Virus record (IMG/VR): IMGVR_UViG_3300025840_004398
Origin: a virus
Lineage: Duplodnaviria; Caudoviricetes
Length of the DNA stretch: 64,000 nt
Reading direction: 5' to 3' (one strand)
In this document: one piece after another, positions 1-58,509 of the stretch
Layout: the number at the start of each line of letters is the position of its first letter
How positions within the stretch are numbered: position 1 is the stretch's first letter
Translations under genes and position numbers: made by a program
Notes under the pieces: generated by a model
What the model saw: only the letters and a program-made list of their open reading frames with translations
Told to the model about the DNA's origin: nothing
Databases searched by the model: none

Positions 1-804
1 AAAGGTGTTGAATATGCTGGTGAATTAGGATTACAAAACTCACGAGATTTATTTAAAATATTAGAGTGGAATAACCACAACAACATCAAAGTATTTCGTT
101 TATCATCAGATATGTTCCCTTGGGCATCTGAATATGGTATCGAGAACTCACCATACTACAAACGAATAGAAACTGTATTACAAGCATGTGGTCACTATGC
201 AAAAACACATGGTATTCGTATCACTTGTCATCCTGGTCCTTTCAACGTATTAGTATCACCCAACGAACGAGTGGTACAAAACACAATTACTGATTTAGAA
301 ATTCATGGTAAGATATTTGATATGTTAGGCCTTTCTCGTACACCTTACAACAAAATCAACATTCATTGTAATGGTGTGTATGGTGATAAGATTTCTGCTA
401 TGGATAGGTTCTGTAAGAACTTTGAGAGATTATCAGAATCAGTTAAAACACGCCTAACAGTAGAAAACGATGATAAGGGTACAATGTACTCAGTAAAAGA
501 TTTAATGTACATACACGAACGTATAGGGATTCCTATTGTGTTTGATTATCACCACCACAAATTCTGTACAGGTGATTTATCAGAACAAGAAGCATTAGAA
601 CTTGCTTTATCTACTTGGCCTGATGGTATCAAACCAATCGTACATTATTCAGAATCAAAAGCGTTACATGAAGAAAACGATAAACTTAAACCACAAGCAC
701 ATTCAGATTATATCAACGAGTTACCTAACTTATATGGTAATGATGTGGATGTGATGGTAGAGGCTAAGGCGAAGGAGTTATCAATCCTTCCTTTTATTAA
801 TTAA
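1..804 (+). CDS. uvsE: UV-damage endonuclease UvsE/UvdE (5'-truncated by window edge)
   Basis: The frame is open from base 1 (KGVEYAGELGLQNSRDLFKILEWN...FRLSSDMFP). Family motifs: HPGPFNVL, NIHCNG, RLTVENDD, IPIVFDYHHH, HYSES, AHSDY, MVEAKAKE. Confidence 0.92.
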   Translation, partial: KGVEYAGELGLQNSRDLFKILEWNNHNNIKVFRLSSDMFPWASEYGIENSPYYKRIETVLQACGHYAKTHGIRITCHPGPFNVLVSPNERVVQNTITDLEIHGKIFDMLGLSRTPYNKINIHCNGVYGDKISAMDRFCKNFERLSESVKTRLTVENDDKGTMYSVKDLMYIHERIGIPIVFDYHHHKFCTGDLSEQEALELALSTWPDGIKPIVHYSESKALHEENDKLKPQAHSDYINELPNLYGNDVDVMVEAKAKELSILPFIN

Positions 805-42819: not shown

Positions 42820-45800
42820 ATGCCATTACCAAGCGAAGGTGAATTGAGTATAAAGGATTTACAACAAGAGGCAACCATACCAGATGGTAATACGAATACT
42901 TTTGTTGAAATGGCAGAAGTATATGATATTGATAACTTCAACGTAAATTCACCTCAGGATATTGTACTTGCCGATGATTTTTATGGAGAAGAAGTAAACC
43001 TAACCGCTACATCTATTACATTAAATCCAACTTTATTAACATTTCCTTCGTCTGGTGGTAATCTTACAACTAATTTGAGTTTAAATGGGTTTGCTTTAAT
43101 GGTTGGTAAACCAGGTTGGTTAACAACAGAAAAAACTTATCTTAAAACATCAGATGCGGGTTCAATACAATTTACGGCAACTGAAAATAGTTTTTTAGGT
43201 GCTTCTCCCAGAAGTAAATCCATTCAGTTTATAGGACAAAGTTCCAATGTTTATGGAACGTTAATTGTATCCCAAAGTGGAAATCCAGTTGAAATATCAT
43301 TAACTCCATCAAATTCACAAACAATTGCAGCCAACACAACAACATTTACTCAAGATGTTACAGTAACAAATCCTTTGGAGGTTTTTGGTTCTGTAACTGG
43401 TAGTGGGTTTACTTTATCTTCACCATCAGTAACTAATCTTGGAAGTACAAGTAGATATCGATTTACTTTAACTCAGAGTGTAAATACAGGTGGTGTTAGA
43501 CAAGCTGAATTAAATTTTGATATTACTGGTTCAAATTTTATACAACAAAGAAGTGTCACACACACCCAATCAGCATTTGCCGCAAATGTAAGTGTATCAC
43601 CTACATCATTTGATTTTAATATTAATGGAGAAACTAAATTATTTGTAGTAACCGCAAATACTGATTGGGAAGTTTTTACAAGTGGAGGTGATTCTACTGC
43701 ATTCGAAACATCCATTACATCAGTTAGTTCTGGATTTTCTACCACAACAAAAAATGGTACAGGTAATGGAACAAATCAAACTTATAATGTTTGGGTAAAG
43801 GTAGGTAATAATAGTGCGGGTGGTACAAATGATAGGAGTACTACATTAGTAGTAAGAGAAAGACCTTGGAGTGGTGGTGGTGCTTTTGGAAATGCATCAT
43901 TAACACAAGATGGAAATCCATTACCATCGTTTACATACGCCAATGCGCAGGTTAGTGGGTTTTCAGTTGCAACTAATGGTGCAGTAACTGCACCTACTTC
44001 TGCTAATGGAACTCCAATATCAGTTACATATAGTACTGGATATAGTAACGGAAGTTTTCCTGCTCCTGTGTCTAGTAATACAACAAGATATGCTTATGTA
44101 AATGCTACTGTTCCTTCTACTGGGTATTCAAATTCCGGTGGTACTGTATCAGGTACTGAATCAGCTACACAATTAGTTCCTCAAGAATTTATAACAATTG
44201 CATCAAGTACAGGTACAGGTGTGTCTGGTCAAGGAGAAAATTTTCAGATTACTGTTGATACTGAAGATTCTTTAAGTACTCAATGGACTGCAGAAATATC
44301 ATATGCAAATCCATCCAATAGTTCTAATTGGGTACAGCTCGCTGCAGGTGCACAGGGAACTGGAGATGGTTATTTTTTCGTAACGGTCTCTGGTAACTAT
44401 TCTGGTCAACCAGGATACAACGGTTCAACACGATATTTTGATATTAGAGTTTATAAGAATAATGATTATTATGGTCTTTTTGATTCTATATCCTTTAGCC
44501 AGTCTACTGGTACACCTCCTGTAGCGAAACCAACATTTTCAGTAACACCTTCTTCTGCTTCTTGGACATACTCTCAATCGGGTACAGGAGCTGCTAAAAT
44601 ATTTACTGCTGCGTATACAGGTGGAAACCCACCAACATCGGTTAGTTTTTATATATCTGGTACTTATTTTGCATTGAAACAATATGACCAAAATGTACCC
44701 TTAGCATTTACTGGACCGCCATGGGTTGCACAGGCAACAAACACAAGTGGTATTTCATCATACAGTGTTCAAGTCTACCCTGTAAATCAAAATAGTAATG
44801 TTGCTGATAATACTGAAAGTATGTCAGTTAGTATGGGTAATTCTGGTGGGAGTAATTCGGTATCGGTTCCTCTTACTCATTCAGGTCAAAGAACATGGAG
44901 TGTATCTCCAACATCAATAACTGTTGATTATTCAACTGGTAATTCTACTGTTACACTAACTACAAATTTAAGTTGGTCAGCTGTTTTAGACCCTGGAAGT
45001 TATTCATCATTTGCGTTGTCGGGTGGTAATAGTCAAACTGGTACAGGTAATAAATCTTTTTTGATTACAAGGGGAACTAATAATAGGTCAGCTGATGTAA
45101 CGGGTACACTAACACTAACCTCAACAACCTCAGGTACCAGCGAATCAACAACAATTAGTTTAACACAAAACCCTGAACCTCCTGATTTGCAGTTAGGAAT
45201 TAACACAAGTACTACTTCTACTACTGCTTTATATCAAATAACCCCCTCAACAAATGGCCAATCATATTCTTTATATGTAAAACACGACCCATCCCGTAGT
45301 GGAACTGTTACTTTTAGTATTACTTATGAAAATAGTCCTCATGTTGGATTGGCTACTTATTCAGCAACAACATCAGGAGCTGGGGGGAATGTGATTACCG
45401 CAACCGTTTCTGGAACGAATGTTATTCGATATCTTAACTTTGCTTCAAACCCAACTAATAGTACCCGAGAGGCGATTACACGAATATCATCTAATATAGC
45501 TTCAAATACAATTCAAATAAATTCATCATATGGTTCGGGTGGTGCTGAGTGTATATTAAAGGGAACAAAAGTAAAATTAGCAGATGGTAGTTTGATTAAC
45601 GTTGAAGAACTTAATATAGGTCAAATCTTATTTAGTAAGTTGGTTGATACGATGCCAATAAAAAATGAAGAGGATGCATTATCTTGGGTATCCGAAGATT
45701 TATCAATATCAGATGATGAAGTTTCTTTAGTTGGAATGACCCTTTATAAAGTTGAAAATATTTATAATTTTAATAGTGGGTTGATAAAAACAACACCCGA

Positions 45801-46023
45801 CCATTTACATTTTGTTAAAAAACAAAATTTATATCAAGTTGTAAAAGCTCAAAGTGTTTTCGTGGGAGATTACCTAATAAAAGAAGATGGTACAGAAGTT
45901 GAAATAATATCGAAAATATTAGAAACAGGATATTATACTGTTTATAAATTAGATGTAGAGGAAAATGATTTATTTATAGCTAATGGATTAATAACACATA
46001 ACGCTAAAGGAATAGAGGTGTAA
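42820..46023 (+). CDS. fibre-associated adhesin: BACON-like domain array plus C-terminal Hint domain
   Basis: N-terminus MPLPSEGELSIKDL; repeated VSPTS..(G)..VTLTTN..W units; Hint from CILKGTKV (45550) through TPDH to FIANGLITHN (46002), then AKGIEV-stop. Confidence 0.8.
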   Translation: MPLPSEGELSIKDLQQEATIPDGNTNTFVEMAEVYDIDNFNVNSPQDIVLADDFYGEEVNLTATSITLNPTLLTFPSSGGNLTTNLSLNGFALMVGKPGWLTTEKTYLKTSDAGSIQFTATENSFLGASPRSKSIQFIGQSSNVYGTLIVSQSGNPVEISLTPSNSQTIAANTTTFTQDVTVTNPLEVFGSVTGSGFTLSSPSVTNLGSTSRYRFTLTQSVNTGGVRQAELNFDITGSNFIQQRSVTHTQSAFAANVSVSPTSFDFNINGETKLFVVTANTDWEVFTSGGDSTAFETSITSVSSGFSTTTKNGTGNGTNQTYNVWVKVGNNSAGGTNDRSTTLVVRERPWSGGGAFGNASLTQDGNPLPSFTYANAQVSGFSVATNGAVTAPTSANGTPISVTYSTGYSNGSFPAPVSSNTTRYAYVNATVPSTGYSNSGGTVSGTESATQLVPQEFITIASSTGTGVSGQGENFQITVDTEDSLSTQWTAEISYANPSNSSNWVQLAAGAQGTGDGYFFVTVSGNYSGQPGYNGSTRYFDIRVYKNNDYYGLFDSISFSQSTGTPPVAKPTFSVTPSSASWTYSQSGTGAAKIFTAAYTGGNPPTSVSFYISGTYFALKQYDQNVPLAFTGPPWVAQATNTSGISSYSVQVYPVNQNSNVADNTESMSVSMGNSGGSNSVSVPLTHSGQRTWSVSPTSITVDYSTGNSTVTLTTNLSWSAVLDPGSYSSFALSGGNSQTGTGNKSFLITRGTNNRSADVTGTLTLTSTTSGTSESTTISLTQNPEPPDLQLGINTSTTSTTALYQITPSTNGQSYSLYVKHDPSRSGTVTFSITYENSPHVGLATYSATTSGAGGNVITATVSGTNVIRYLNFASNPTNSTREAITRISSNIASNTIQINSSYGSGGAECILKGTKVKLADGSLINVEELNIGQILFSKLVDTMPIKNEEDALSWVSEDLSISDDEVSLVGMTLYKVENIYNFNSGLIKTTPDHLHFVKKQNLYQVVKAQSVFVGDYLIKEDGTEVEIISKILETGYYTVYKLDVEENDLFIANGLITHNAKGIEV

Positions 46024-46061: not shown

Positions 46062-47111
46062 ATGGGAAAAGTAATACTAGTAACAACAGGATGTGGTAAT
46101 ACTGTTGTAGGTGGGGCAGATATATGGGTTAATAATTTTTTAAAAGAAGTGTGGACTAAACTTGATAATAAAAAAAATTATAAACTCCTTATAGATTCGA
46201 AAAGACCGAATTCTTTCGAAGAAAAAAGTTTACCAAAAGGAATTGACTTTAATTTTCATCATGAAAATCCTGAAAAAACGGATGAGTGGTGTAAGTCTGC
46301 TTCTTGGATTCACTTCCTACATCCACATTATCATCCACGACCTCACTTACTAAAGTATGAAGATAAATTTGGAATATGCTTTGTTCATGCATATCCAAGA
46401 GATATGAAATCCATTATAAACAATCTACCTGAAATAAGTAAATTACAACTATCTACAAGTGTAGATGAAAAATGGTATGATGAATTTCTTTTAACTTGCA
46501 AGAGAAGAATATGGATTGGGTTGAATTCCAAAACCACATTATTTAAAAATTTTCCAAATTATACATATCTTTTACCTAACTACTATGAGTTTAGAGGACC
46601 TGCATCTCTGACAACAAATGTTTCTAATGGTGCGGTTGGATATGCCGCTAGAATAGAAACAAGAAAGTGTTTTCATTGGATGCATGGAATAAATGAAGGA
46701 TTTGCCTTGACTAGCTCAAGGGATGTTGAAAATTTAAAATCAGTCACTAGATTTACATTTAAAACAACCGATGTTTATGAGTGGAATCCAAATATACACA
46801 AAGCTTTCATGACTAAAAATTGGGGAATTTTTCATGGAGCATATTTTAGAGAACCATTTGGTTATTCTATTTTTGAAGCAGTAGATTATGGAAAAATACC
46901 AATAATAAACACAGATTGGGCACCAGAAGTTGATTACAAATATCGAGCATCAACGAAAAACGAATTTGATAATTCTATTAAACAAATTTTAAAAGATTCT
47001 CAGCAAACTCGTGTAGAAGAAAGAAATAAGTTGATTCAATTTATGAAAAAATTCGATAACAAAAAAGAATGGGTTGACCAAATTCGTTCACAACTTTTAT
47101 CTTTTTATTAA
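46062..47111 (+). CDS. GT-B glycosyltransferase (GT4-like)
   Basis: VGGADIWV N-terminal motif; REPFGYSIFEAV (EX7E). Confidence 0.75.
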   Translation: MGKVILVTTGCGNTVVGGADIWVNNFLKEVWTKLDNKKNYKLLIDSKRPNSFEEKSLPKGIDFNFHHENPEKTDEWCKSASWIHFLHPHYHPRPHLLKYEDKFGICFVHAYPRDMKSIINNLPEISKLQLSTSVDEKWYDEFLLTCKRRIWIGLNSKTTLFKNFPNYTYLLPNYYEFRGPASLTTNVSNGAVGYAARIETRKCFHWMHGINEGFALTSSRDVENLKSVTRFTFKTTDVYEWNPNIHKAFMTKNWGIFHGAYFREPFGYSIFEAVDYGKIPIINTDWAPEVDYKYRASTKNEFDNSIKQILKDSQQTRVEERNKLIQFMKKFDNKKEWVDQIRSQLLSFY

Positions 47112-47139
47112 ATTTATTTACGTTTCATATATTTTTATA

Positions 47140-47147
47140 TATTTATA
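47140..47147 (+). promoter_or_regulatory. TATTTATA candidate late promoter heading the modification operon
   Basis: Followed by a G5-TA-G6 tract and ATG 47192. Confidence 0.55.
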
Positions 47148-47191
47148 TACAAGGGGGTAGGGGGGTTAGTTATAAGCACTAAAAACAAAAA

Positions 47192-47971
47192 ATGAGTATT
47201 CTTAATAAAGATTTTATAAAAGACTTTATAACCCATAACTTAAGCACTAAGGTTGATTCGAATGGAAAGGAATATACCGAACACACTCCAATCAAGTATA
47301 GATGGACTCATGGTGCAACTGAATATAGTTTGGGTGATGGATTATTAGTTTATTCTGTAATCCACTATCTTCGTGCCAAAGTTTGTGTATGTCTTGGAAG
47401 TGGTGGGGGATTCATTCCAAGAATAATGACTCAATCGAGGTTTGACCTTTTTGATGCAAAAATATTTGAAGGGAACAATGATATAAATTGGGGAGATATA
47501 GGTTCAACTTATTTGGTAGATGCTGATAATGGTGTTGGTGGTTTTACTGATTGGACTGATGAAAATTCTTATTATAGAAAACACTTTGACCCAAGATTAC
47601 TTCTAACAACTACCGAAGAAGCATATTACAACTTTTTCGTAAAAGAAGATATTAAAATTGATTACCTTCACATAGATGCTGGACATACATACGAGGATGT
47701 AAAAAATGATTTTGAATTATATTCTCAATTACTTCAACCACATGGTATAATTTCAATTCACGATACTGATTCATCATTTGAAAAAGAACATATAGTAACC
47801 GCGGATATTAGAGATGGATATCACCAAGAATATGCCGAAGGACCTTCTAAACTAATTAAAGAATTAAAAGAAAATAAAGATTGGGAAGTATTTAACTTTT
47901 TCAATAATGGTATATTTAAAAGTAAACCAGCATCAACAGGTCTAACATTCGTTCAAAGATGCAAAATATAA
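47192..47971 (+). CDS. class I SAM-dependent methyltransferase (Methyltransf_24-like)
   Basis: VCLGSGGGF motif I; IDYLHIDAGHTYEDV..D; GIISIHDT. Confidence 0.85.
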   Translation: MSILNKDFIKDFITHNLSTKVDSNGKEYTEHTPIKYRWTHGATEYSLGDGLLVYSVIHYLRAKVCVCLGSGGGFIPRIMTQSRFDLFDAKIFEGNNDINWGDIGSTYLVDADNGVGGFTDWTDENSYYRKHFDPRLLLTTTEEAYYNFFVKEDIKIDYLHIDAGHTYEDVKNDFELYSQLLQPHGIISIHDTDSSFEKEHIVTADIRDGYHQEYAEGPSKLIKELKENKDWEVFNFFNNGIFKSKPASTGLTFVQRCKI

Positions 47972-48801
47972 ATTTGGTTACAGTTGTAGGACACAATACT
48001 ACACTTCTTCCCCATATGTTAAATCATTATAAAGATATCGTTGATGATATCTATGTTGTTGTTTACAGACAACACGAACTAGATGGTATTTTAGAAGATG
48101 TAATCAATCTTGGTATTGAACCTTACAAAGTAGTTACAGAACCAAAGTTTAATTGGGAACGAGTAACCGAATTATATAACGAAGTTAAACAAACCAAGCC
48201 CGATGAATGGTGGGTGGTTTCGGATGACGATGAGTTCCACATTTACCCCAAACCAATCAGAGAAATGATTAATGAGTGTGAGGAAAATGGTTGGGAGTTT
48301 ATTACAGGTGGATTCCTCGATAGGATAGGAGAGGGGGGAGAGTTTCCTTTAGTAGAAAAGGATACTAATATTTGGGAAAAGTTCCCACTTGCAGGATTTT
48401 TTAGATTTCCTATGAGTGGGGCAATGCCTAACAAATGTTGTATAATGAAAGGTTCAGTTGATGTAACACCAGGTCAACACTTTGCTGTGATTGGTGATAC
48501 CGATACTTGGAGAGAACGAGGATGGAATCATCCTAAAAGATATCCTATTGAAAACGGATTTGTTCAAGTTCACCACTTCAAGTGGGACTCAACTGTTTTA
48601 AAGAGGCTTAAAGAAGTTTCGGAAACAAAAGAAGATTATACATATTGGAAAGAATATCGTAAAATGTATAGAGGGATACAACTAAACGATTGGAAAATTG
48701 ATGTTGATAATCCTGAATTTAGGTTACAAAAAATGATTCGTAAGAATTATAGTGAGTATGGTGAATGGCAAGAACTCACTAATGTTATAATCAATATATG
48801 A
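47959..48801 (+). CDS. GT-A glycosyltransferase (GT2-like, Glyco_tranf_2_4 type)
   Basis: LLPHMLNHY..IYVV; WWVVSDDDEF (DxD); HHFKW. Confidence 0.75.
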   Translation: MQNINLVTVVGHNTTLLPHMLNHYKDIVDDIYVVVYRQHELDGILEDVINLGIEPYKVVTEPKFNWERVTELYNEVKQTKPDEWWVVSDDDEFHIYPKPIREMINECEENGWEFITGGFLDRIGEGGEFPLVEKDTNIWEKFPLAGFFRFPMSGAMPNKCCIMKGSVDVTPGQHFAVIGDTDTWRERGWNHPKRYPIENGFVQVHHFKWDSTVLKRLKEVSETKEDYTYWKEYRKMYRGIQLNDWKIDVDNPEFRLQKMIRKNYSEYGEWQELTNVIINI

Positions 48802-50267
48802 AAGATAAATTAGCAATCATACTTCCATTTAGAGATAGACAAGACCACTTGGATGTCTTTGTACCACATATGCACGAGTTCCTCAAAGATAAAGGAATAG
48901 ACTATACTATTTTTATTGCCGAACAAACCGATGATAGACCTTTCAATTATGGTAAACTATGTAATGTAGTTACCAAAGAAATTGGTGAGGAATATACTTA
49001 CTTTGCTTTTCATGATATTGATATGTTACCTATTTCAGATGATTGTGATTATTCGTATCCAGACGAACCAACTCATTTATCAACTAATGTAGAATCACAC
49101 GAGAATAAATTACCTTACCCACAATATTTCGGTGGTGTTGTTTTAATTAATCGAGAAGATTTTGAAAACGCAAATGGGTATTCAAATGAATATTGGGGTT
49201 ATGGTTTTGAAGATTTAGATTTATTGAGAAGATTAGAAAAAAGTGGTGCTTATCTCGAAAAATTTTATGATTCAAATCAAACATATAACGAATATGATGA
49301 GAATGATATTTTACCATATCGTATAGAAAATGTAAAAATTATAAATAAGAAAATAACAAATAAATTACACACAATACAGTTAAATAAAAATGATAGAATT
49401 TATTCGGTTCAAAATAAAAAAATGAAATCATTGACGTCTGGTAGTTTTACTATAACTTTATGGTTTAATGATATAGACAGTGAGCTTAGAGATAAAAATA
49501 TATTTTCATTTGAAGGATGTGATATGGGTGTGTTTTTATCTAATGGGAAGTATATTATATCACAGATTTGGGATAATAAAGAAAATAATTACGAAACATC
49601 TTTACCATATTACAAAGATAAATGGAATTTTATTATATTGTCATATGATAACAAAACAAAAAATCTTACATTATCGTTAAATAACAAATACATTAATACA
49701 TTGGATTTACCATCTAAATTTGAAATATTTGACTACTCCGATAAAAAAATTAAAATATCAGATTTAGAAACTGAAATTCAAATAGCGAATGTCATAATAT
49801 TTGACCAACTATTAGACGATACCATAAAAACTGAATTATACTATAATGGGGTTGAATCTCTATCTAATATAATTGATATTAAAAAAATAGAACCAACAAA
49901 CATAATATTATTTAAATCCACTTATGGTAAAAATTTTTTTATAGATAATGGTAAATATGGAAACCATTTACAGTTTTTTGGAAACCCATCATCCGATACT
50001 TATAGTATTTCACTAACAGATGAATTGTATTTGCCTTTTAGAATTGAAGGTAAATATAAATCACTTTCACACGACAATGACGATAACATTATAGATAGAT
50101 ACTATGAATATAATCCTGATGTTGAAGAAAATGCAGATATTTTCTTTCATGAAGTTTTAACTAATGAGTTGGATTATAAATCAATAGGATTGAATTCATT
50201 AAAATATGAATCAGTAAAAGAAAAAAACGAAGAATTAAATTATATTTCATTTAAAATTGTTACATAA
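48798..50267 (+). CDS. GT7 (beta-1,4-galactosyltransferase-like) with internal LamG-like domain, paralogue 1
   Basis: IILPFRDR, PFNYGKLCN, FHDIDMLP, YFGGV, YWGYGFEDLD, then a ~260-aa insert, then KSLSH...GLNSLKY. Confidence 0.88.
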   Translation: MKDKLAIILPFRDRQDHLDVFVPHMHEFLKDKGIDYTIFIAEQTDDRPFNYGKLCNVVTKEIGEEYTYFAFHDIDMLPISDDCDYSYPDEPTHLSTNVESHENKLPYPQYFGGVVLINREDFENANGYSNEYWGYGFEDLDLLRRLEKSGAYLEKFYDSNQTYNEYDENDILPYRIENVKIINKKITNKLHTIQLNKNDRIYSVQNKKMKSLTSGSFTITLWFNDIDSELRDKNIFSFEGCDMGVFLSNGKYIISQIWDNKENNYETSLPYYKDKWNFIILSYDNKTKNLTLSLNNKYINTLDLPSKFEIFDYSDKKIKISDLETEIQIANVIIFDQLLDDTIKTELYYNGVESLSNIIDIKKIEPTNIILFKSTYGKNFFIDNGKYGNHLQFFGNPSSDTYSISLTDELYLPFRIEGKYKSLSHDNDDNIIDRYYEYNPDVEENADIFFHEVLTNELDYKSIGLNSLKYESVKEKNEELNYISFKIVT

Positions 50268-50268
50268 G

Positions 50269-50502
50269 ATGACAGAAGAACAATTCAAACAATTGATGGA
50301 GGTTCTAAACGATATACTCGAATCAACTCAGAATATTGAAGATGCAATCTACGATGCAAACTTCAAAGAACACAATGAGAAAGTAGAGTGGAATCTATGG
50401 GAAATCCATAACTTAGCAAAAATTAAATTTAAAGGTTCAGAAAATAGACCATCACGAGATGCAGAGAGAACGCAGGAATCGGAGGAAAGTTCAGAATCAT
50501 AA
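50269..50502 (+). CDS. small acidic hypothetical protein
   Basis: Start MTEEQFKQ at 50269; 3' end overlaps the next ORF by 44 nt. Confidence 0.6.
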   Translation: MTEEQFKQLMEVLNDILESTQNIEDAIYDANFKEHNEKVEWNLWEIHNLAKIKFKGSENRPSRDAERTQESEESSES

Positions 50503-51898
50503 ATTAGGTATTATAGTTCCATACAGAGATAGACCTCAACAACTAAAGAGGTTCGTCAAACATATGGGAGAATATCTAACTGATTTGGACTATCAAATAT
50601 TCATCATCGAACAATCAGATGGTAAGCCATTTAATCGTGGTAAACTTCTGAATATTGGATACAAATTCGCATGCGATAATGGATGTGATTATTTTGTATT
50701 TCATGATGTTGATATGTTACCTGAGGATGTAGATTATTCTTATTCAGATAAACCTTTACATTTAGCAACTCACTTACAAGAACACGATTACGAAACCACA
50801 TTCTTTGATTACTTTGGTGGAGTAACTATGTTCAACAAAGAAGATTTCGAATTGATAAACGGATTCTCCAACGAATATTGGGGTTGGGGATTCGAAGATG
50901 ATGACCTACTGATTAGATGTATTGAATCTGATTTAGAAATAGATAAAGAGTGTATTCAAAAAGAATATGATATTACTGAATATGAGTCTTTTAAATTCAA
51001 TGGTACAAGTTCATTTATAAAAATTAAATCGGATGATAGTAAATTATTAGAAGATAGTTTTACCTTATCTGTTCTCGTAAAACCAGAAAATATTTTACTC
51101 AATGAAAACAAAGAATATGATGAGTTTCCAATATTAGTAATACCTGGATATGACATTGGGTTCTTTTACGATTCATTTAGAAGATTTAGATGCCAGATTT
51201 ATGATAAAAATAAAAAACCATATTCTATAACATCAGATATTATAGGAGAATCTTGGTTACATTTAACGATGACGTATGAAGATAGAAAACTATCATTGTA
51301 TATTGACGGTAAACTATATAACACAATTATAACCGATGATGATTTAATAGAAATATCAAGTGATATTATTTTTGTAGGTACATCGAGTGATGTGAAAACA
51401 AATAATAATTTCTTTTATGGATTAATATCAAATGTTGAGGCTTACGAAATATCACTTGTAAAAGATGAGGTTTATGAAATATATAAAAATTCAAAATATC
51501 CTAAGATTAGAAATTTTGGAAAATTTTATGCATCTGAATACTTGGTAAATCATATTTTACCTGAAAATTCTAATGAAGAATATTGTATAGATTTATCTGG
51601 TAATGGTAAAGTAGAATTAAATGATGTTGGTATAATAAAATTAAAGAATAATCAAAAAACTTTTTTACCAAAGCCGTATCGTAGAAACTCAAGATTTAAA
51701 TCATTAGTTCATAAATCAAATTCTTCTGTTGGAAATAAATGGATTCATGGTGAAACACGAAAAAATCAATTAAAATATTACAACAAAATAAGACAACATG
51801 AAGTAGATTTTAGAATAGATGGACTGAATACATTGCGATATAAATTGGTAAAGGAAAAAGAAAATAAAAAAGTAAAACAAATATCAGTAGAGTTATGA
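50459..51898 (+). CDS. GT7 with internal LamG-like domain, paralogue 2 (start uncertain)
   Basis: IIVPYRDR, PFNRGKLLNIG, FHDVDMLP, YFGGV, YWGWGFEDDDL, insert, KSLVH...DGLNTLRY. Confidence 0.9.
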   Translation: MQRERRNRRKVQNHKLGIIVPYRDRPQQLKRFVKHMGEYLTDLDYQIFIIEQSDGKPFNRGKLLNIGYKFACDNGCDYFVFHDVDMLPEDVDYSYSDKPLHLATHLQEHDYETTFFDYFGGVTMFNKEDFELINGFSNEYWGWGFEDDDLLIRCIESDLEIDKECIQKEYDITEYESFKFNGTSSFIKIKSDDSKLLEDSFTLSVLVKPENILLNENKEYDEFPILVIPGYDIGFFYDSFRRFRCQIYDKNKKPYSITSDIIGESWLHLTMTYEDRKLSLYIDGKLYNTIITDDDLIEISSDIIFVGTSSDVKTNNNFFYGLISNVEAYEISLVKDEVYEIYKNSKYPKIRNFGKFYASEYLVNHILPENSNEEYCIDLSGNGKVELNDVGIIKLKNNQKTFLPKPYRRNSRFKSLVHKSNSSVGNKWIHGETRKNQLKYYNKIRQHEVDFRIDGLNTLRYKLVKEKENKKVKQISVEL

Positions 51899-52305
51899 GT
51901 GAAACACCAGAAATAGGAATAATTGCAGGTAACTTTGATGTTCTACATCCTGGTTATCTAAAGATGTTTCAAGAAATTGAAAATCATTGTGAAAAACTAT
52001 TTATATTATTACACGATGACCCAACCATTGAAAGACCACATAAGAAAAAACCAATTCTTTCGGTAAACGAAAGAAGAGAGATGTTAAAACAGTTTACATG
52101 GCACCACACTATACTTACTTATAATACAGAAGAAGAACTTCTGTTCTTAATTAAAAGTATAGACCCTGATATAAGATTCTTAGGAGATGATTATGTAGAT
52201 AAATCTTATACAGGTGATAATTTAGGAATACAAGTTCATTGGATAAATCGTTCACATGGTTGGAGTACCACAAAATTTAAACAAGCAATTGCAGATTCAA
52301 TATGA
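51895..52305 (+). CDS. cytidylyltransferase (TagD/RfaE-C-like)
   Basis: IAGNFDVLHPGY, KPILSVNERREML, GDDY, RSHGWSTT. Confidence 0.88.
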   Translation: MSETPEIGIIAGNFDVLHPGYLKMFQEIENHCEKLFILLHDDPTIERPHKKKPILSVNERREMLKQFTWHHTILTYNTEEELLFLIKSIDPDIRFLGDDYVDKSYTGDNLGIQVHWINRSHGWSTTKFKQAIADSI

Positions 52306-53750
52306 AATTAGGAGTTTGTGTACCATATAGAAATAGAGAAGCACACTTAAAAGAGTTTGTACCAAGAGTTGGTAAATATCTTGAAGAACAAGGTATAGAA
52401 TATTGTATGTACTTTGGACATCAAGTTGATGACAAACTTTTTAACAGAGGAGCAATGAAAAACATTGCAGCTAAACACGCATTTGAAGATGGGTGTGATT
52501 ATATAGTTTGGCATGATATAGATATGATACCACAAAAAGATGGAGGTGCAGACTATTCATATCCAAAAGAAAATCCAATTCATATAGCTACAAACATTTC
52601 ACAAATGAATTACAAACTAAAGTATGAAGAATATTTTGGTGGTGCTGTTTTATTTACCAAGGAACAAGTTGAAAAAACCAATGGTTATTCTAATGATTAT
52701 TGGGATTGGGGAATGGAAGATGATGATTTGTTTTGGAGATGTGTATTGGAAGGATACGCCAACGATACTTACATGGATTTTACAGAAGAACCACAATCAT
52801 ATCTATCTTTCAATGGAACCAATTCGTATGTTCACATACCATGTACAAGACCATTAAGAAACTTAACTTCTCGTTCACACACCATTTCAGTTTTAGTTCG
52901 TGCTCACCAACAAGAAGAAAAAGTTCCAATTTGGTTAGTTGGTGACGAAGAAAGACAATTCTGTGAATATCCCATTCTTAGGAGACCTGGATTTGATTAC
53001 GGATTAAGTTATAATAATTCTAGAGCTTACACCTCCCAACTTTGGAACAACCAAAGAGAACATCTTTATCAATGGATGAAAAGATATGAAAATCAATGGA
53101 GTTGGGTAACACTTGTAGTAAACGACAATAATATTCATTTCTATATGAATGGTAAAGAATCAGACGCACGATGGGGTACTGGGACTCAATCACCTCTTCA
53201 TTTTGAAGGTTCTTTAAAAAGATATGGAAATGTTGACTATTATTTAGGAACAACAACATCTGTAAAGGAAGGAGATGTGTCAAAATGGTTCAAAGGAGAT
53301 ATTGCAGATGTTAGAATGTGGAATAGAGCTTTAACATCGGAAGAAGTTAAAGAAATTTCAAAAACCATTATAGACGATAGTTTAGTAATTCATTATGATT
53401 TTTCAGATGGAACCGCAAAGGATTTAAGTGGTAGAGAAAATCATGGAACTCAATATAATTGTGAAATTAATAGTGGAAGTATAAAATTACCACATACAAT
53501 CGTTCCCCATAGAAAACCCGGTAGATTAGAATGTTTAGACCATGAAGATGAGGGTTTGGTAGTTGACAAACAAGGTATTATGAAATGGGCTAAGGGTGAA
53601 ACTACTGCTAGAAACGAAAGAAGATTTGTTAAACAGATGCAGGCTGGTGAATGGGACTATAAGTCCGATGGAATAAATTCACTTAAATATAATTTAGTCA
53701 GTATAGAAGAAATAACAGATAAGGCTAAATTTATAAATGTTACTTTATGA
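52302..53750 (+). CDS. GT7 with internal LamG-like domain, paralogue 3
   Basis: VCVPYRNR, LFNRGAMKN, WHDIDMIP, YFGGA, YWDWGMEDDDL; LamG (FKGDIADVRMWNRALTSEEV); ECLDH...DGINSLKY. Confidence 0.9.
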   Translation: MKLGVCVPYRNREAHLKEFVPRVGKYLEEQGIEYCMYFGHQVDDKLFNRGAMKNIAAKHAFEDGCDYIVWHDIDMIPQKDGGADYSYPKENPIHIATNISQMNYKLKYEEYFGGAVLFTKEQVEKTNGYSNDYWDWGMEDDDLFWRCVLEGYANDTYMDFTEEPQSYLSFNGTNSYVHIPCTRPLRNLTSRSHTISVLVRAHQQEEKVPIWLVGDEERQFCEYPILRRPGFDYGLSYNNSRAYTSQLWNNQREHLYQWMKRYENQWSWVTLVVNDNNIHFYMNGKESDARWGTGTQSPLHFEGSLKRYGNVDYYLGTTTSVKEGDVSKWFKGDIADVRMWNRALTSEEVKEISKTIIDDSLVIHYDFSDGTAKDLSGRENHGTQYNCEINSGSIKLPHTIVPHRKPGRLECLDHEDEGLVVDKQGIMKWAKGETTARNERRFVKQMQAGEWDYKSDGINSLKYNLVSIEEITDKAKFINVTL

Positions 53751-55129
53751 GTACATTTCAAGATATAAAAAATAAACTTGATGGAGTTGGTTGTGGTTTT
53801 TGTTTAGCAAAATGGACACAAGTCACTATGCATTTACACAATGGATTAACACATTCCTGTCACCACCCATCACCTCATAAAATACCTTTAAGAGAGATAG
53901 AAAGAAATCCTACCGCCCTTCACAACACAAGATTTAAAAAATCAGCTAGAAGGGAAATGTTATCCAACGAAAGACCAAAGGAGTGTGATTATTGTTGGAA
54001 TGTGGAGGATAATTCGGAAAGATTTTCAGATAGGGTATTAAAATCTTCAGAACCCTGGTCAATTGTGGATTTTGAAAAAATTAAATCATCTTCTTTTAGA
54101 GACAACTTCAATCCAAGGTACGTTGAAGTTTCTTTTTCTAACACTTGTAATTTTAAGTGCTCATATTGTTCTCCTTTATTTTCATCAAAATGGATGGAAG
54201 AAGTAAAACAATTAGGACCATACCCCACAAGTGATAAATTCGGCAGACTTGATGTATTAAAAGAAGAAAACAAAATACCATATCTACAATCTGAACATAA
54301 CCCATATGTAGAAGCATTTTGGAAATGGTGGCCTAATTTATATCGTGATTTGCATACTTTTCGAATTACTGGTGGAGAACCACTTTTATCAAAAGACACT
54401 TGGAAAGTTTTGGATTATATTATAGAAGAACCAAATCCAAATAAAAAGTTAAATCTTTCAATAAATACCAACTTAGGAATACCTGATAATTTATTTAATA
54501 AATTTATAGAAAAAATAGATAAGATTATATCTGAAGATAGGGTAAATGAATTTATAGTTTATACTTCATGTGATACTTGGGGAGAACAGGCGGAATATAT
54601 ACGAAACGGATTGGAGTTTAATAGATTTTGGGATAATATAAACATAATATTAGAAAAACTTCCAAAAGTTACTGTTGTTATAATGAGTACATATAATATG
54701 TTTTCACCATTTGGGTATAATAAACTACTTGAGGAAGTATACAAATTAAAAAAAGAATATGCCAATGATGAAAGATATTGGAATCATTCCATAATTTTAG
54801 ATACCGCATATCTAAGATATCCAAAACATCAAACAGTACAACTTTTAGATGATACTCACAAAGAAATAATAAGAAGTAATGCTGAATACGCATATTACCA
54901 TTCCTCACCTGTATTTACAAAATCAGAATTGGGATTTACTGGAGTTGAAATAAATAAAATTAAAAGAATTTATGATTGGTCTATATCAGAAATAGATAAT
55001 GAAATTTTAAACAGAGAAAGAAACAACTTTGTAAAGTTTGTTGATGCTCATGATAAGAGAAGGGGAACTAATTTTTTAAAAACATTTCCTGAGTTGGAAG
55101 ATTTATACTATAAAATAAAAAACAAATGA
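53747..55129 (+). CDS. radical SAM protein, N-terminal twitch-like module (CHH subtype)
   Basis: FCLAKW..SCHHP..ECDYCW; CNFKCSYC; ITGGEPLL; DKRRGTNFLKTFPEL. Confidence 0.9.
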   Translation: MSTFQDIKNKLDGVGCGFCLAKWTQVTMHLHNGLTHSCHHPSPHKIPLREIERNPTALHNTRFKKSARREMLSNERPKECDYCWNVEDNSERFSDRVLKSSEPWSIVDFEKIKSSSFRDNFNPRYVEVSFSNTCNFKCSYCSPLFSSKWMEEVKQLGPYPTSDKFGRLDVLKEENKIPYLQSEHNPYVEAFWKWWPNLYRDLHTFRITGGEPLLSKDTWKVLDYIIEEPNPNKKLNLSINTNLGIPDNLFNKFIEKIDKIISEDRVNEFIVYTSCDTWGEQAEYIRNGLEFNRFWDNINIILEKLPKVTVVIMSTYNMFSPFGYNKLLEEVYKLKKEYANDERYWNHSIILDTAYLRYPKHQTVQLLDDTHKEIIRSNAEYAYYHSSPVFTKSELGFTGVEINKIKRIYDWSISEIDNEILNRERNNFVKFVDAHDKRRGTNFLKTFPELEDLYYKIKNK

Positions 55130-55809
55130 TTATAGAAAAAGAAAAACCATGGTTATTGTGGCCAAGTAAATCTTCTCATGGGATATCAAAAGGAGACATA
55201 CAAAATGTTTTAGAAGGTCATGATGACTTTACTTTTAGTATGAGAATAAAAGTATTATCTAAAGAACCAAATAAAAGAACGATATTTTCAAAGTTACCTA
55301 ATTATATGGGTATAGATGTTGAAAACGAAAATAATAATATTTTATTTATTTGTACAATAAGAAAAGGTGATGTAGTTGAACCAAAGTATATTTTTTTAAA
55401 TGACACCCTTGGTTGGGATTGGAATTTTATTTCTATAAAATATTCAAAAAAATATAATCTAATAGTTTTAGATGTAAATGGTTCTATTTTACATGAACTT
55501 CAATTAAAAGAAGATGAATCAATAGAATCTTTTGATGATTCTCATTTTATATTTGGAGCTGGTAATTTTCCTCACAATGGATTTAATTTAAATTATTCTG
55601 AGTTTGATGTTGATTTTTTATGTATATCAAAAGAATATTTAGAACAAGACGATATCGAAACATTATATAAGAGTGAATCAACAGATAATAAAAATGTAAT
55701 TGGTTTGTATAATTTTAGTAAAAAAACCGATTATCAAATTTTTGATTTAACAAACAATTATAATCTAATACACAGAATGTTAGATTCAACTTCATATTTA
55801 AAAGAATGA
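55126..55809 (+). CDS. stand-alone LamG/concanavalin-like domain protein
   Basis: FTFSMRIKV..WNFISIKY..LDVNG..FIFGAG..IGLYNF..IFDLT parallels the GT7 inserts. Confidence 0.5.
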   Translation: MIIEKEKPWLLWPSKSSHGISKGDIQNVLEGHDDFTFSMRIKVLSKEPNKRTIFSKLPNYMGIDVENENNNILFICTIRKGDVVEPKYIFLNDTLGWDWNFISIKYSKKYNLIVLDVNGSILHELQLKEDESIESFDDSHFIFGAGNFPHNGFNLNYSEFDVDFLCISKEYLEQDDIETLYKSESTDNKNVIGLYNFSKKTDYQIFDLTNNYNLIHRMLDSTSYLKE

Positions 55810-57182
55810 AACACTACGAAAGTATAAAACATCAGTTAGATAGTGTATCTCCAAGTTTTTGTATAGCTAAGTGGGCTCAACTTACTTTGTATTTACAAAC
55901 GGGATACAACCATTCTTGTCACCACCCAACTCCACATAAAATTCCATTAGAAGAAGTTTTAGAAAATCCAAAGGCACTTCATAATACTCAGTTTAAAAAA
56001 GCTCAAATGAGAAAAATGTTGGAAGGTGAAAGACCTGCTGAATGTGAGTACTGTTGGAAAATAGAAGATTTGGGAAAAGGATATCTTAGTGATAGAGTCT
56101 ATAAATCAGCACATGAATTTTCACAAGAAAAGATAGAAGAAATTGTTACAAGAAAAACCGCTGATATTGAACCAAGTTATTTAGAAATTAGTTTTTCTAA
56201 CACCTGTAATCTTAAATGTGCGTATTGTTCACCTGATATATCTTCAACTTGGATGCAAGAAATAGAACAACATGGTGGTTATCCTACAACATCTAATTAT
56301 AATAATTTAGAGTGGTTTAAACAAAACCAAAAAATGCCATACAAACACTCGGAAGAAAATCCATATGTAGATGCCTTTTGGAAATGGTGGCCGGAACTAT
56401 CACCAAAATTACATACACTAAGGTTAACAGGTGGTGAACCACTTCTATCAAAAGATGTTTGGAAAATTATAGATAGTATTATAGAAAATCCAAATCCAAA
56501 GTTAGTTTTTTGTATAAACACAAACTTGTTAGTACCTGATAATTTAATTGATAAGTTAATTGAAAAATTAAATATACTTGATGGTAAATTAAAAGAGATA
56601 CAAATATTTTCTAGTGGTGAAGCAACAGGAAAATCAAATGAATACATTAGATTTGGAACTAATCATGAAAAGTGGAAGAAAAACTTTGAGAAAGTATTAT
56701 CTCAAACAAAAAATGTATTAGTTGCAAACATGACAACGGTAAACCTAACTAGTGTAAACACCTATTGTGATTTTATAAGGTATCTTTTAGATATGAGAAG
56801 TATTTATAACAAAGAAGTTACTTTTGATAAAGTACAATTTATGACCAACTATTTAAGATATCCTGAATTTTTGGCAATAACCTTATTAGATAATGAAACA
56901 AAAGATAAATTCAAATCAGACGTTGAAAAACTAATAGAAGAAAGAAAGTTTGGTAAATGGAAAGATACAGAATATGGGTATCTAACAAATGAACAAGTTG
57001 ACCAGTTGAATAGATTGATTGACCATATGTATAAAAATACATTTGAAGATGAAGAAAAGTTAAAAACTATTCGTAGAGATTTTTATTCATTTATTGTTGA
57101 ATACGACAAAAGAAGAAATACTAATTTTTTAGAAACTTTTCCTGAATTAGAAAAATTTTATAAGTTATGTCAAGAAGCTTAA
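55806..57182 (+). CDS. radical SAM protein, N-terminal twitch-like module (CHH subtype)
   Basis: FCIAKW..SCHHP..ECEYCW; CNLKCAYC; LTGGEPLL. Confidence 0.9.
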   Translation: MKHYESIKHQLDSVSPSFCIAKWAQLTLYLQTGYNHSCHHPTPHKIPLEEVLENPKALHNTQFKKAQMRKMLEGERPAECEYCWKIEDLGKGYLSDRVYKSAHEFSQEKIEEIVTRKTADIEPSYLEISFSNTCNLKCAYCSPDISSTWMQEIEQHGGYPTTSNYNNLEWFKQNQKMPYKHSEENPYVDAFWKWWPELSPKLHTLRLTGGEPLLSKDVWKIIDSIIENPNPKLVFCINTNLLVPDNLIDKLIEKLNILDGKLKEIQIFSSGEATGKSNEYIRFGTNHEKWKKNFEKVLSQTKNVLVANMTTVNLTSVNTYCDFIRYLLDMRSIYNKEVTFDKVQFMTNYLRYPEFLAITLLDNETKDKFKSDVEKLIEERKFGKWKDTEYGYLTNEQVDQLNRLIDHMYKNTFEDEEKLKTIRRDFYSFIVEYDKRRNTNFLETFPELEKFYKLCQEA

Positions 57183-58507
57183 AAGAAACATCAGATATAA
57201 TAAATTCAATATCCCCATCCTTTTGTGCAGCAAAATGGTATAACGTATCCATATGGTTGGGTAATGGAAGAACCGCTTCTTGTCATCATCCACTTGCTCA
57301 TTATATTCCAAAAATGGAATTAGACAAAAACCCCTCAGCAGTTCATAATACTAAATTTAAAAAAGAAAGAAGAAAGGAAATGCTTGAGGGAGTTAGACCC
57401 GATGAGTGTTCTTATTGTTGGACTGCCGAAGATGCTGCAAAAAAGAATGGAGAAGAAATATTTTCGGATAGAGTATATCAATCAGATAGATACACAACAG
57501 AAGAGATACTTGCTATAAAAGATATACCATGGACACGAGATGTAATTCCGAAAACAGTCGAATTGGCATTTGATAACCTATGTAACTTGGCGTGTTCTTA
57601 TTGTAATGCAGAATTTTCATCAACATGGGCAAGAGATATTGGAACAAAAGGGCCATATGAAGGAATGATAACATCTGGTGGAAAAACTTTTGAAAATGAT
57701 GGTTCTCACGCAATGCCATTTGGGAATAAAAACGAAGGAAACACTTATGTTGAAAAATTCTTTGAATGGTTTCCTATGATTAGAAGGGGACTGCAAGAAT
57801 TAAGAGTATCTGGTGGTGAACCATCTCGTTCACCTTCATTTTGGAGACTATTGGACATTTGTGATAACGATAACTTCGATTTCGCAGTAAATTCAAATTT
57901 AATTATGGATGAAGTCAGACTACAAAAATTAATAGACTCATCCGATAAATTTAAATCATTCGATATATATACTTCTGCTGAATGTGGTGGTAAATTACAA
58001 GAATTTGTAAGAGATGGATTTGATTGGAAACTGTGGGAAGATAATATGTGGAAAGTTGCCAATTCTGGTAAAATAAATGGACTACATATTATGATGACCG
58101 TATCTGTTTTGAGTGTATGGACTATTCATGAATTCTTAAAAATGATTATAGAATGGAGAAAAAAAATAGGACATAAAGAAATATTTTATATGTCCGTTAA
58201 TATAGCTAGATTCCCATCATTTCAAAATGTTAATATAATCGAACAAAGTATAAAAAACGAATTGGCAGATAAAATAGAATCTGCTCTAAATGAATCGAGA
58301 GAGTGGATGCATGAATGGGAACAAAATCACTATGAAAGATTGATTGTATATTTAAGAAACGTAGTTCAGTCATATGAAGATAAAGATACAATGGAAAATA
58401 AAAGAAGTGATTTTAAAAACTTTATACAACAATATTCTAAAAGAAGAAACAAACCACTTGATGAATATTTACCAGAAGAAACATTAACTTGGTTAAATAA
58501 TATCTAA
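57167..58507 (+). CDS. radical SAM protein, N-terminal twitch-like module (CHH subtype)
   Basis: FCAAKW..SCHHP..ECSYCW; CNLACSYC; VSGGEPS. Confidence 0.9.
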   Translation: MSRSLKETSDIINSISPSFCAAKWYNVSIWLGNGRTASCHHPLAHYIPKMELDKNPSAVHNTKFKKERRKEMLEGVRPDECSYCWTAEDAAKKNGEEIFSDRVYQSDRYTTEEILAIKDIPWTRDVIPKTVELAFDNLCNLACSYCNAEFSSTWARDIGTKGPYEGMITSGGKTFENDGSHAMPFGNKNEGNTYVEKFFEWFPMIRRGLQELRVSGGEPSRSPSFWRLLDICDNDNFDFAVNSNLIMDEVRLQKLIDSSDKFKSFDIYTSAECGGKLQEFVRDGFDWKLWEDNMWKVANSGKINGLHIMMTVSVLSVWTIHEFLKMIIEWRKKIGHKEIFYMSVNIARFPSFQNVNIIEQSIKNELADKIESALNESREWMHEWEQNHYERLIVYLRNVVQSYEDKDTMENKRSDFKNFIQQYSKRRNKPLDEYLPEETLTWLNNI

Positions 58508-58509
58508 CT

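Follow-up and report, generated by a model that had tools for sequence, protein, structure and literature searches.

Three Glycosyltransferase Genes With Nested LamG Domains

Among the genes of an uncultured, AT-rich myovirus represented by a 64,000 nt stretch of DNA (IMG/VR record IMGVR_UViG_3300025840_004398; hereafter the window), three encode proteins that resemble the beta-1,4-galactosyltransferases of family GT7 and carry a LamG domain within their catalytic part. These genes, here termed p1, p2, and p3, are found on the + strand exactly where an earlier note on this DNA had placed three open reading frames (ORFs): p1 at 48798..50267 (489 aa), p2 at 50459..51898 (479 aa), and p3 at 52302..53750 (482 aa). 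The proteins share pairwise identities of 30-36%. p1 belongs to a divergent orthologous group (FNYG, EDLD, IGLN) and was assigned by Pfam matches, an AlphaFold2 (AF2) model, structural alignment with VIA-align and clade-specific substitutions. p2, in which all catalytic motifs are intact, was assigned by Pfam, phmmer searches of the PDB, AF2 and VIA-align, and p3, a member of the most conserved orthologous group (WDWGMEDDD), by Pfam and a clade support of 100.

The LamG inserts comprise residues 156-414 of p1 (259 aa; 49263..50039, + strand, with edges taken from the alignment to insert-less homologues), residues 164-407 of p2 (244 aa; 50948..51679, + strand) and residues 154-403 of p3 (250 aa; 52761..53510, + strand), in line with the 245-260 aa or so estimated previously. 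In the order p1/p2/p3, the catalytic part shows the motifs PFRDR/PYRDR/PYRNR, FNYG/FNRG/FNRG, DID/DVD/DID, the common YFGG, and EDLD/EDDD/EDDD, and the C-terminal segment KSLSH/KSLVH/ECLDH and GLNSLKY/DGLNTLRY/DGINSLKY. Every GT7 motif quoted in the earlier note was thus recovered, except that p3 reads WDWGMEDDD and does not conform to the WG(W/Y)G pattern given there.

A Complete LamG Domain Inside the GT7 Fold

All three proteins match both Pfam models of the GT7 family far above the gathering cut-offs: Glyco_transf_7N with 59.6-77.7 bits (cut-off 27; E = 3e-16 to 8e-22) and Glyco_transf_7C with 68.1-71.4 bits (cut-off 23; E = 5e-19 to 7e-20). The 7C match ends at profile position 61-67 of 78, and the LamG match starts at that point. 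The Laminin_G_3 model (cut-off 27.6 bits) scores 52.8 bits in p2 (E = 6e-14) and 54.8 bits in p3 (E = 2e-14, profile positions 1-151 of 151), and 27.6 bits, exactly the gathering cut-off, in p1 (E = 4e-6). Residues 10-166 of p2 match B4GALT1 with E = 1e-31 in a phmmer search of the PDB with p2 alone, and with E = 1e-45 when the family profile is compared with the PDB; residues 430-478 are collinear with the B4GALT1 C-terminus, this second piece being weak by itself.

Structural models were obtained for p1 and p2 with AF2, the latter from a 61-row alignment, and the sequence of p3 aligns with p2 over its full length. The p2 model has a predicted local distance difference test score (pLDDT) of 91.7 and a predicted template modelling score of 0.87, and the p1 model a pLDDT of 92.7. 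In VIA-align, the p2 model superposes on bovine B4GALT1 with Z 28.1 and a root mean square deviation of 2.8 Å over 217 aligned residues, so that residues 8..479 correspond to 174..398 of the bovine enzyme. The p1 model aligns with B4GALT7 (Z 27.7) and B4GALT1 (Z 27.0) over 211-212 residues, with residues 1..489 spanning 178..398 of B4GALT1. In Foldseek only the N-terminal 154 residues of the GT core were aligned to B4GALT1, because the insert breaks the local alignment, and VIA-align was therefore needed to capture both parts. With a profile E of 1e-45 and structural Z of 27-28, the resemblance to GT7 is far beyond chance.

The inserts themselves adopt a LamG/pentraxin-type jelly-roll in the models. 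That of p2 (residues 173-401) aligns with the LamG domain of PAPP-A (Z 22.5), with the Bacteroides protein 4dqa (Z 21.8) and with pentraxins (Z 17-20), and that of p1 (residues 187-408) with such domains at Z 20-21, including the LamG domain of PAPP-A (Z 21.2, residues 189-408); for the two inserts together, 4dqa scores Z 20-22, and all of these alignments are collinear along the entire insert. A circularly permuted LamG domain, suggested by a DxSGxxNxG motif at the C-terminal end of the insert, was rejected on account of this collinearity with solved LamG and pentraxin domains.

That the LamG domain is nested rather than appended follows from homologues which lack it. In nine insert-less metagenomic GT7-like proteins of approximately 220 aa, both flanks align and are separated by a single clean gap of about 250 columns, which has the helix after EDDD on one side and a conserved RxGxFxSLxH strand on the other. 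Similarly, the family hidden Markov model (HMM) matches GT7-like proteins of bacterial genomes (210-340 aa) in two pieces, 3-150 and 404-474. Since both flanks align to insert-less homologues, the arrangement represents a true nested insertion, and the LamG domain occupies the loop leading from the helix that begins at the catalytic E-D-D-D to the strand bearing the metal-binding His. Insert-less homologues and structural alignments hence bear out the earlier view of a domain insertion instead of a terminal fusion, and the superpositions with B4GALT1 likewise support its proposal that the C-terminal segment completes the GT7 fold. Its assignment of a LamG fold to the insert is supported by the matches of the p1 and p2 models to the PAPP-A domain (Z 21-22.5). 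According to the models, the core and the C-terminal flanking segment together form a GT7 fold with a complete jelly-roll nested inside. The three proteins are soluble, cytoplasmic GT-A glycosyltransferases of the beta-1,4-galactosyltransferase type.

The closest characterized counterparts are the animal enzymes B4GALT1 and B4GALT7 (CAZy GT7), with which the phage proteins share the GT-A fold (31-35% identity over 211-217 residues, Z 27-28) and the same order of PxRxR, FNRxK, DxD, YFGG, WGxEDDD, metal-binding His and DGLNSLxY. In contrast to them, the phage proteins are cytoplasmic, phage-encoded and known from genes alone; they have no membrane anchor, no stem and no equivalent of residues 130-173 of the bovine enzyme, i.e., the first 45 or so residues of its catalytic domain, and they hold 244-259 aa of LamG between the catalytic helix and the His strand.

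Catalytic Residues and the Deviant First Copy

Residues were mapped to bovine B4GALT1 by alignment, and the resulting numbering is consistent with the mutants named in PDB titles (R228K, W314A, C342T, M344H). Asp318 in the WGxEDDD loop of B4GALT1 is the catalytic base. Roles in the Mn site have been described for Asp254, His347, and Met344 (PMC7565966). The three proteins of the window retain the Asp of the DxD motif (Asp254), the metal-binding His (His347), the first Asp of EDDD (Asp318), and the Tyr of YFGG (Tyr289). The His of KSLSH/KSLVH/ECLDH, which had been proposed to belong to the metal site, indeed aligns with His347 in the RMIRH strand of B4GALT1. Trp314 of the small loop is represented by Trp in p2 and p3 and by Tyr in p1, and the position of Met344, in a further difference from the animal enzymes, is occupied by Ser in p1 and p2 and by a conserved Cys in p3.

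Conservation was counted over 78 non-redundant orthologues (28 of p1, 28 of p2, and 22 of p3). The catalytic residues are kept without exception in p2 (28/28) and p3 (22/22). Among the p1 orthologues, DxD is present in 26 of 28 and the metal-binding His in 20 of 28, and six of the 28, all from other phages, carry Trp or Tyr in place of the catalytic Asp. Furthermore, changes are found clade-wide in p1: the Arg228 position has become Tyr, the Asp319 position Leu or Ile and the Asp of DGLN Ile (R60 to Y, D148 to L/I and D454 to I across the whole orthologous group), while the Glu317 position is variable. The EDLD sequence for which p1 had been singled out as deviant is therefore one of several group-wide substitutions, and the catalytic Asp is still present in the copy of the window. 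In a freshwater subclade (L001:8189-9646; L032, L034, L036, L043, and L053), p1 orthologues show Trp or Tyr at the catalytic Asp and Asn at the metal-binding His, and these proteins are likely pseudo-enzymes that still bear the LamG insert.

The p1 of the window is deviant yet probably active, and probably differs in donor or acceptor as judged from the replacement of Arg228 by Tyr and of Asp319 by Leu. In B4GALT1, the R228K exchange is reported to move the donor preference towards glucose, and following this precedent the window copy is read not as a dead copy but as an enzyme whose donor or acceptor is different. The R228K mutant has also been crystallised (PDB 1yro).

Distribution, Orthology, and Origin of the Family

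The GT7-LamG family comprises at least 2,885 clusters at 90% identity, all of them metagenomic and including Tara sequences, and at least 541 loci in IMG/VR. Among 83 sources examined, 46 carry three full-length tandem copies, 34 carry two and three carry one. Five of the 34 two-copy loci are interrupted by the contig end, and the remainder consist of a p2-like gene followed by a p3 gene. In one IMG/VR relative (L015:8001-9456), a frameshift or a sequencing error breaks the p2 gene into two ORFs (314 and 178 aa) that overlap.

A maximum-likelihood tree sorts the genes by their position (1, 2, or 3) into three groups, for which the number of label changes is the smallest attainable, a value that was reached in none of 200 shuffles; p1 and p3 are each separated from the rest by a starred branch, and the p3 clade has a support of 100. 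This grouping by gene position indicates that the triad is old and its order fixed, and the three positions are, on the evidence of the tree, ancient orthologous groups. A tree of the core columns was rooted with insert-less proteins. Constraining the insert-less rows to stay together gave a better likelihood than the free search, and the constrained tree was not rejected by the approximately unbiased (AU) test (p = 0.76). A single insertion event, in which a LamG domain entered an insert-less bacterial-type GT7 core, is therefore compatible with the data, the three groups then arising by duplication of the gene. The inserts diverge faster than the cores: identities between groups are 20-25% in the inserts vs 35-41% in the cores, and within groups 29-51% vs 51-66%.

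Among 185,579 species-representative genomes, the architecture was found in full in only three contigs of metagenome-assembled genomes (MAGs), one of which, a 248 kb contig binned as Flavobacteriaceae, has the length of a phage genome. The AlphaFold DB holds one cluster representative of the same architecture (474 aa, template modelling score 0.69, automatic name only). No match to the region (DNA megablast) or to p2 (tblastn) was detected among 50,697 GenBank phage records. PHROGs contains no GT7-core family, the LamG part alone weakly matching a "virion structural protein" family; BFVD contains no GT7-LamG example, and the GT7 core matches only giant-virus proteins there. A full-text literature search found no description of a GT7 enzyme with a nested LamG domain. 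Existing database labels of the family are "hypothetical" or "predicted peroxiredoxin" (JGI), of which the latter is a misannotation.

Two groups of relatives share the catalytic core. Insert-less bacterial and metagenomic GT7-like proteins, as in Vibrio nomapromontoriensis and Steroidobacter agaridevorans, have the same compact core (profile positions of about 3-150 and about 404-474) with 40-57% identity in the N-terminal part. They differ in having no LamG domain, in residing in cellular chromosomes and in not forming triads. Giant viruses (Mimivirus LCMiAC01 with a galactosyltransferase, Megaviridae with a GT7-like protein, Aureococcus anophagefferens virus with a putative beta-1,4-galactosyltransferase) also encode GT7 cores, with 32-37% identity over approximately 160 residues; their hosts are eukaryotes, the alignment is confined to the N-terminal core (about 162-170 columns), and no nested LamG domain is visible in the local matches. 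Given that bacteria and giant viruses, too, encode compact GT7-like cores, the earlier description of GT7 as a mainly eukaryotic family has to be softened. Three copies in one phage, called unusual in the same note, are so only among cultured phages; in uncultured aquatic phages the triad is common and forms a conserved module.

The Gene Cassette and Its Proposed Function

A baseplate wedge protein of the window is 38-41% identical to homologues in Microcystis phage Mel-JY01, Flavobacterium phage "immuto" and a 484-kb uncultured phage, and the three orthologous groups keep their order in a lineage of large, uncultured aquatic myoviruses. The genes upstream of the enzymes encode fibre proteins with 23-27% Ser+Thr. 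One begins at 37252 and encodes a 1,854-aa fibre protein with an S74 chaperone domain; another (42820-46023, + strand) encodes a 1,067-aa Ser/Thr-rich protein (27% Ser+Thr), which is a candidate glycan acceptor. The latter protein ends in a Hint/intein-like module that starts with Cys-Ile-Leu-Lys and ends with Thr-His-Asn (Intein_splicing, E = 2e-6, below the gathering cut-off), and may be a self-cleaving fibre protein.

The enzyme genes are part of a cassette in which most genes are linked by four-base start/stop overlaps. Its first part consists of genes for a 349-aa protein, a Methyltransf_24 methyltransferase, a GT2-like protein, p1, a 77-aa protein, p2, a nucleotidyltransferase and p3, followed by a twitch radical-S-adenosylmethionine (SAM) enzyme, a 227-aa protein, six further radical-SAM enzymes and an epimerase whose best match is GalE. 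Distant marine and freshwater loci show the same order; the nucleotidyltransferase is missing there, and radical-SAM genes are fewer.

The explanation that we hold to be somewhat better than an even bet is that the three enzymes, with their LamG inserts holding the acceptor, build a glycan stepwise on a virion protein. Each enzyme would act as a metal-dependent, inverting transferase with a UDP-hexose donor, the metal being held by the DxD Asp and the His and the first Asp of EDDD serving as base. For p2 and p3 the donor would probably be of the Gal type, because the equivalents of Tyr289 and Arg228/Glu317 are kept and a GalE-like epimerase is encoded in the cassette. p1, p2, and p3 would attach successive sugars of one defined glycan, and the fast-diverging inserts would grip the acceptor, be it the growing glycan or the target protein, in a role like that of the lectin domain of GalNAc-transferases or, in trans, of alpha-lactalbumin for B4GALT1. 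The likeliest target would be a virion protein that is synthesized concurrently, e.g., one of the Ser/Thr-rich fibre proteins whose genes lie immediately upstream. Non-redundant roles would fit the fixed gene order and the three ancient orthologous groups without being proved by them, and stepwise assembly of a virion glycan appears plausible from homology and gene context.

Several considerations weigh against this explanation. Donor, acceptor, order of action and the role of the LamG domain are all deduced from homology and gene context. The LamG domain need not touch the active site, since its insertion point lies at the far end of the catalytic helix, and the fast divergence of the inserts may just reflect weaker constraint. 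Some p1 orthologues in other phages have lost the catalytic Asp and His, so that p1 may lack catalytic function in some members of the family. Finally, seven radical-SAM/twitch enzymes and a small conserved protein would also fit a peptide-directed pathway, which is taken up below.

Known systems provide partial parallels. In polypeptide GalNAc-transferases (GT27), a ricin-type lectin domain steers acceptor choice. If the proposed role of the inserts holds, the phage enzymes would resemble them in joining a GT-A catalytic domain to a lectin-like domain; the GT27 lectin, however, is a C-terminal fusion of another lectin fold in another glycosyltransferase family. In lactose synthase (B4GALT1 and alpha-lactalbumin), a second protein module near the mobile loop after His347 sets the acceptor specificity of the GT7 enzyme (PMC7565966). 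This modifier is a separate protein acting in trans, whereas the candidate module of the phage enzymes is present in cis, with a small partner being possible on weak support. At the level of the whole system, the proposed function is similar to that of mycobacteriophage glycosyltransferases, which decorate capsid and tail proteins (Freeman et al., 2023, cited in PMC12619734). There, other glycosyltransferase families and other hosts are involved and no nested lectin domains occur, and for the present enzymes a virion protein is the presumed target. Four core glycosyltransferase orthogroups are described for Bacteroidota-infecting aquatic jumbo phages in the "moraphage" paper (PMC12619734).

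A shared upstream element connects the cassette with structural genes. TATTTATA is found 15-60 nt before eight gene starts, including those of the first two genes of the cassette, of the fibre gene at 37252 and of genes in the baseplate region; eight of its 15 copies have this placement, which accounts for 3.4% of the window (binomial p = 1e-8). Its positions on the + strand are 12604, 13450, 15736, 27659, 29605, 30763, 37224, 46040, and 47140, and (T/A)ATATTTATAT(A) can be considered a promoter-like element on the basis of this placement. A T4-type late promoter, TATAAATA, was rejected as it is not enriched (20 found vs 15 expected); the positioned motif TATTTATA is the complement-strand reading of TATAAATA.

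The predicted cytoplasmic location of the enzymes would also suit glycosylation of the phage DNA, i.e., hypermodified bases as a protection against host restriction, and multi-step DNA glycosylation by phage glycosyltransferases provides a precedent (Pyle et al., 2024, cited in PMC12619734). This alternative is regarded as highly improbable: the cassette contains no gene for a base-hydroxymethylase or related enzyme, and its location and upstream motif go with structural and not with replication genes. Moreover, GT7 enzymes are not known to act on DNA.

At the head of the cassette, the 349-aa protein (46062-47111), the Methyltransf_24 methyltransferase and the 280-aa GT2-like protein (together 46062..48801, + strand; Pfam) form a trio whose order is kept upstream of GT7-LamG genes in distant loci. 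The 349-aa protein is conserved in this position (337 aa in other loci) and has no family match, a Pfam search with E up to 10 yielding nothing usable. By eye, a motif similar to EX7E of GT-B glycosyltransferases can be made out in the C-terminal part, a likeness unsupported by Pfam. The small nucleotidyltransferase of the cytidylyl/adenylyl-transferase-like type between p2 and p3 (51895..52305, + strand; PF01467, E = 6e-12) is closest to rfaE domain II and TagD-like models, under their cut-offs, and is absent at this position from most other loci, which makes it an add-on in the phage of the window.

Sugar-nucleotide enzymes of the O-antigen type (the epimerase here, and a dTDP-sugar isomerase and a thiamine pyrophosphate-dependent enzyme in other loci) would suit the remodelling of a host envelope glycan (lipopolysaccharide, capsule or S-layer glycan) during infection, e.g., for superinfection block or progeny release, with inserts that recognise host polysaccharide. 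LamG domains commonly bind carbohydrates, insert-less relatives of the enzymes reside in bacterial chromosomes, and one relative is listed by JGI as a glycosyltransferase of capsule biosynthesis. We nevertheless judge this alternative unlikely. None of the cassette proteins has a predicted membrane segment, and neither the cassette here nor the other inspected loci contain a membrane protein, a flippase, a polymerase or a priming phosphoglycosyl transferase. In addition, the cassette adjoins the fibre genes, has their upstream motif and is conserved across phages of probably different hosts.

Downstream of p3, a free-standing LamG-like protein of 227 aa (55126..55809, + strand) accompanies the enzymes. 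It is undetected by Pfam; a family-vs-family hhalign comparison with the GT7-LamG proteins (probability 99.7%, E = 5e-26) covers positions 177-399, that is, the insert only. Homologues occupy the same operon position, after the first radical-SAM gene, in many loci. The retention of an insert homologue in the same operon, the frequent oligomerisation of LamG/pentraxin folds (as in pentraxins) and the insertion point distal to the catalytic centre, as derived from the B4GALT1 topology, would be in agreement with LamG domains that do not read the acceptor but serve as a scaffold, holding the three enzymes and the free protein together in one complex, or as a tether to the assembling particle. This role, to which we assign a rather low probability, is compatible with stepwise virion glycosylation in everything but the function of the insert.

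Directly 3' of p3 lies the first radical-SAM enzyme with an N-terminal twitch (53747..55129, + strand; NF033640, E = 7e-103). It belongs to a row of seven paralogous radical-SAM enzymes (53747-63520, + strand), all of which have a twitch/SPASM module at the N-terminus (NF033640, E = 1e-81 to 4e-121). A radical-SAM gene follows p3 in other loci as well, in one to three copies. Relatives of the twitch/SPASM radical-SAM superfamily often mature peptides, and the product of the cassette could accordingly be a glycosylated peptide or small molecule (similar to ribosomally synthesized and post-translationally modified peptides or to natural products), to which the GT7-LamG enzymes would add the sugar and for which the 77-aa protein would be precursor or carrier.

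The gene of this conserved 77-aa protein (50269..50502, + strand; HMM from 23 homologues) overlaps the p2 start, and a profile search places it directly before the p2-type gene in 82 of the 83 sources. Homologues begin at the Met of MTEEQ, so the TTG at 50257 that is listed as its start is probably wrong. The protein has two predicted helical stretches, the invariant residues E-W...E...K...G...RP and an acidic tail, and matches no family in Pfam or NCBIfam. A link to p1 only, as found with tblastn, was rejected in view of the profile search. The predicted complex of p1 and the 77-aa protein reached an ipSAE of 0.57, vs 0.00 for the best control, which gives weak support to an interaction. The runs, made with custom-made alignments, share at least 63% of contacts, and the pLDDT of the partner is at least 59. 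The ipSAE mark was passed by 58 of 80 solved complexes and two of 110 mismatches, and passes at 0.60 or under comprise seven of the 80 solved complexes and both passing mismatches. Such a weak pass without prior likelihood is wrong more often than right. The prediction covered p1, while the 77-aa protein always precedes the p2-type gene.

Several observations speak against a peptide or small-molecule product: one radical-SAM gene alone is constant in the minimal conserved cassette, the 77-aa protein lacks the Cys-rich or repeat core typical of radical-SAM peptide substrates, and the cassette contains neither protease nor exporter. We therefore view such a product as improbable and retain stepwise glycosylation of a virion protein as the preferred explanation.

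A more far-reaching and tentative version of this explanation, which we would not expect to hold in all its parts, sees the cassette as a dedicated cytoplasmic protein-glycosylation system of a widespread marine and freshwater phage lineage. Its three GT7 enzymes would each carry a LamG "specifier" in cis, as a counterpart of alpha-lactalbumin, and together with the 77-aa partner and the free LamG protein would place a defined, methylated and radical-SAM-modified glycan on virion fibres.

Significance

The GT7-LamG proteins constitute an abundant, uncharacterised, phage-specific GT7 subfamily with a nested LamG domain. GT7 enzymes are textbook animal Golgi enzymes; here, a compact core of prokaryote type contains a whole lectin-like domain inside the catalytic fold, and this nested design is kept as two or three specialised copies across hundreds of uncultured aquatic phages. 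As the family is absent from cultured phages and PHROGs and is labelled "hypothetical" or wrongly, a clear annotation is useful in itself.

If the inserts set acceptor specificity, nature would provide in this family a set of modular glycosyltransferases whose specifier domains can be exchanged, and the family would point to virion glycosylation as a common trait of abundant aquatic phages, with a bearing on host recognition, grazing and particle stickiness. Should the specifier system prove true, it would constitute a new way to program the acceptor specificity of glycosyltransferases and reveal an abundant, hitherto unrecognised form of virion glycosylation.

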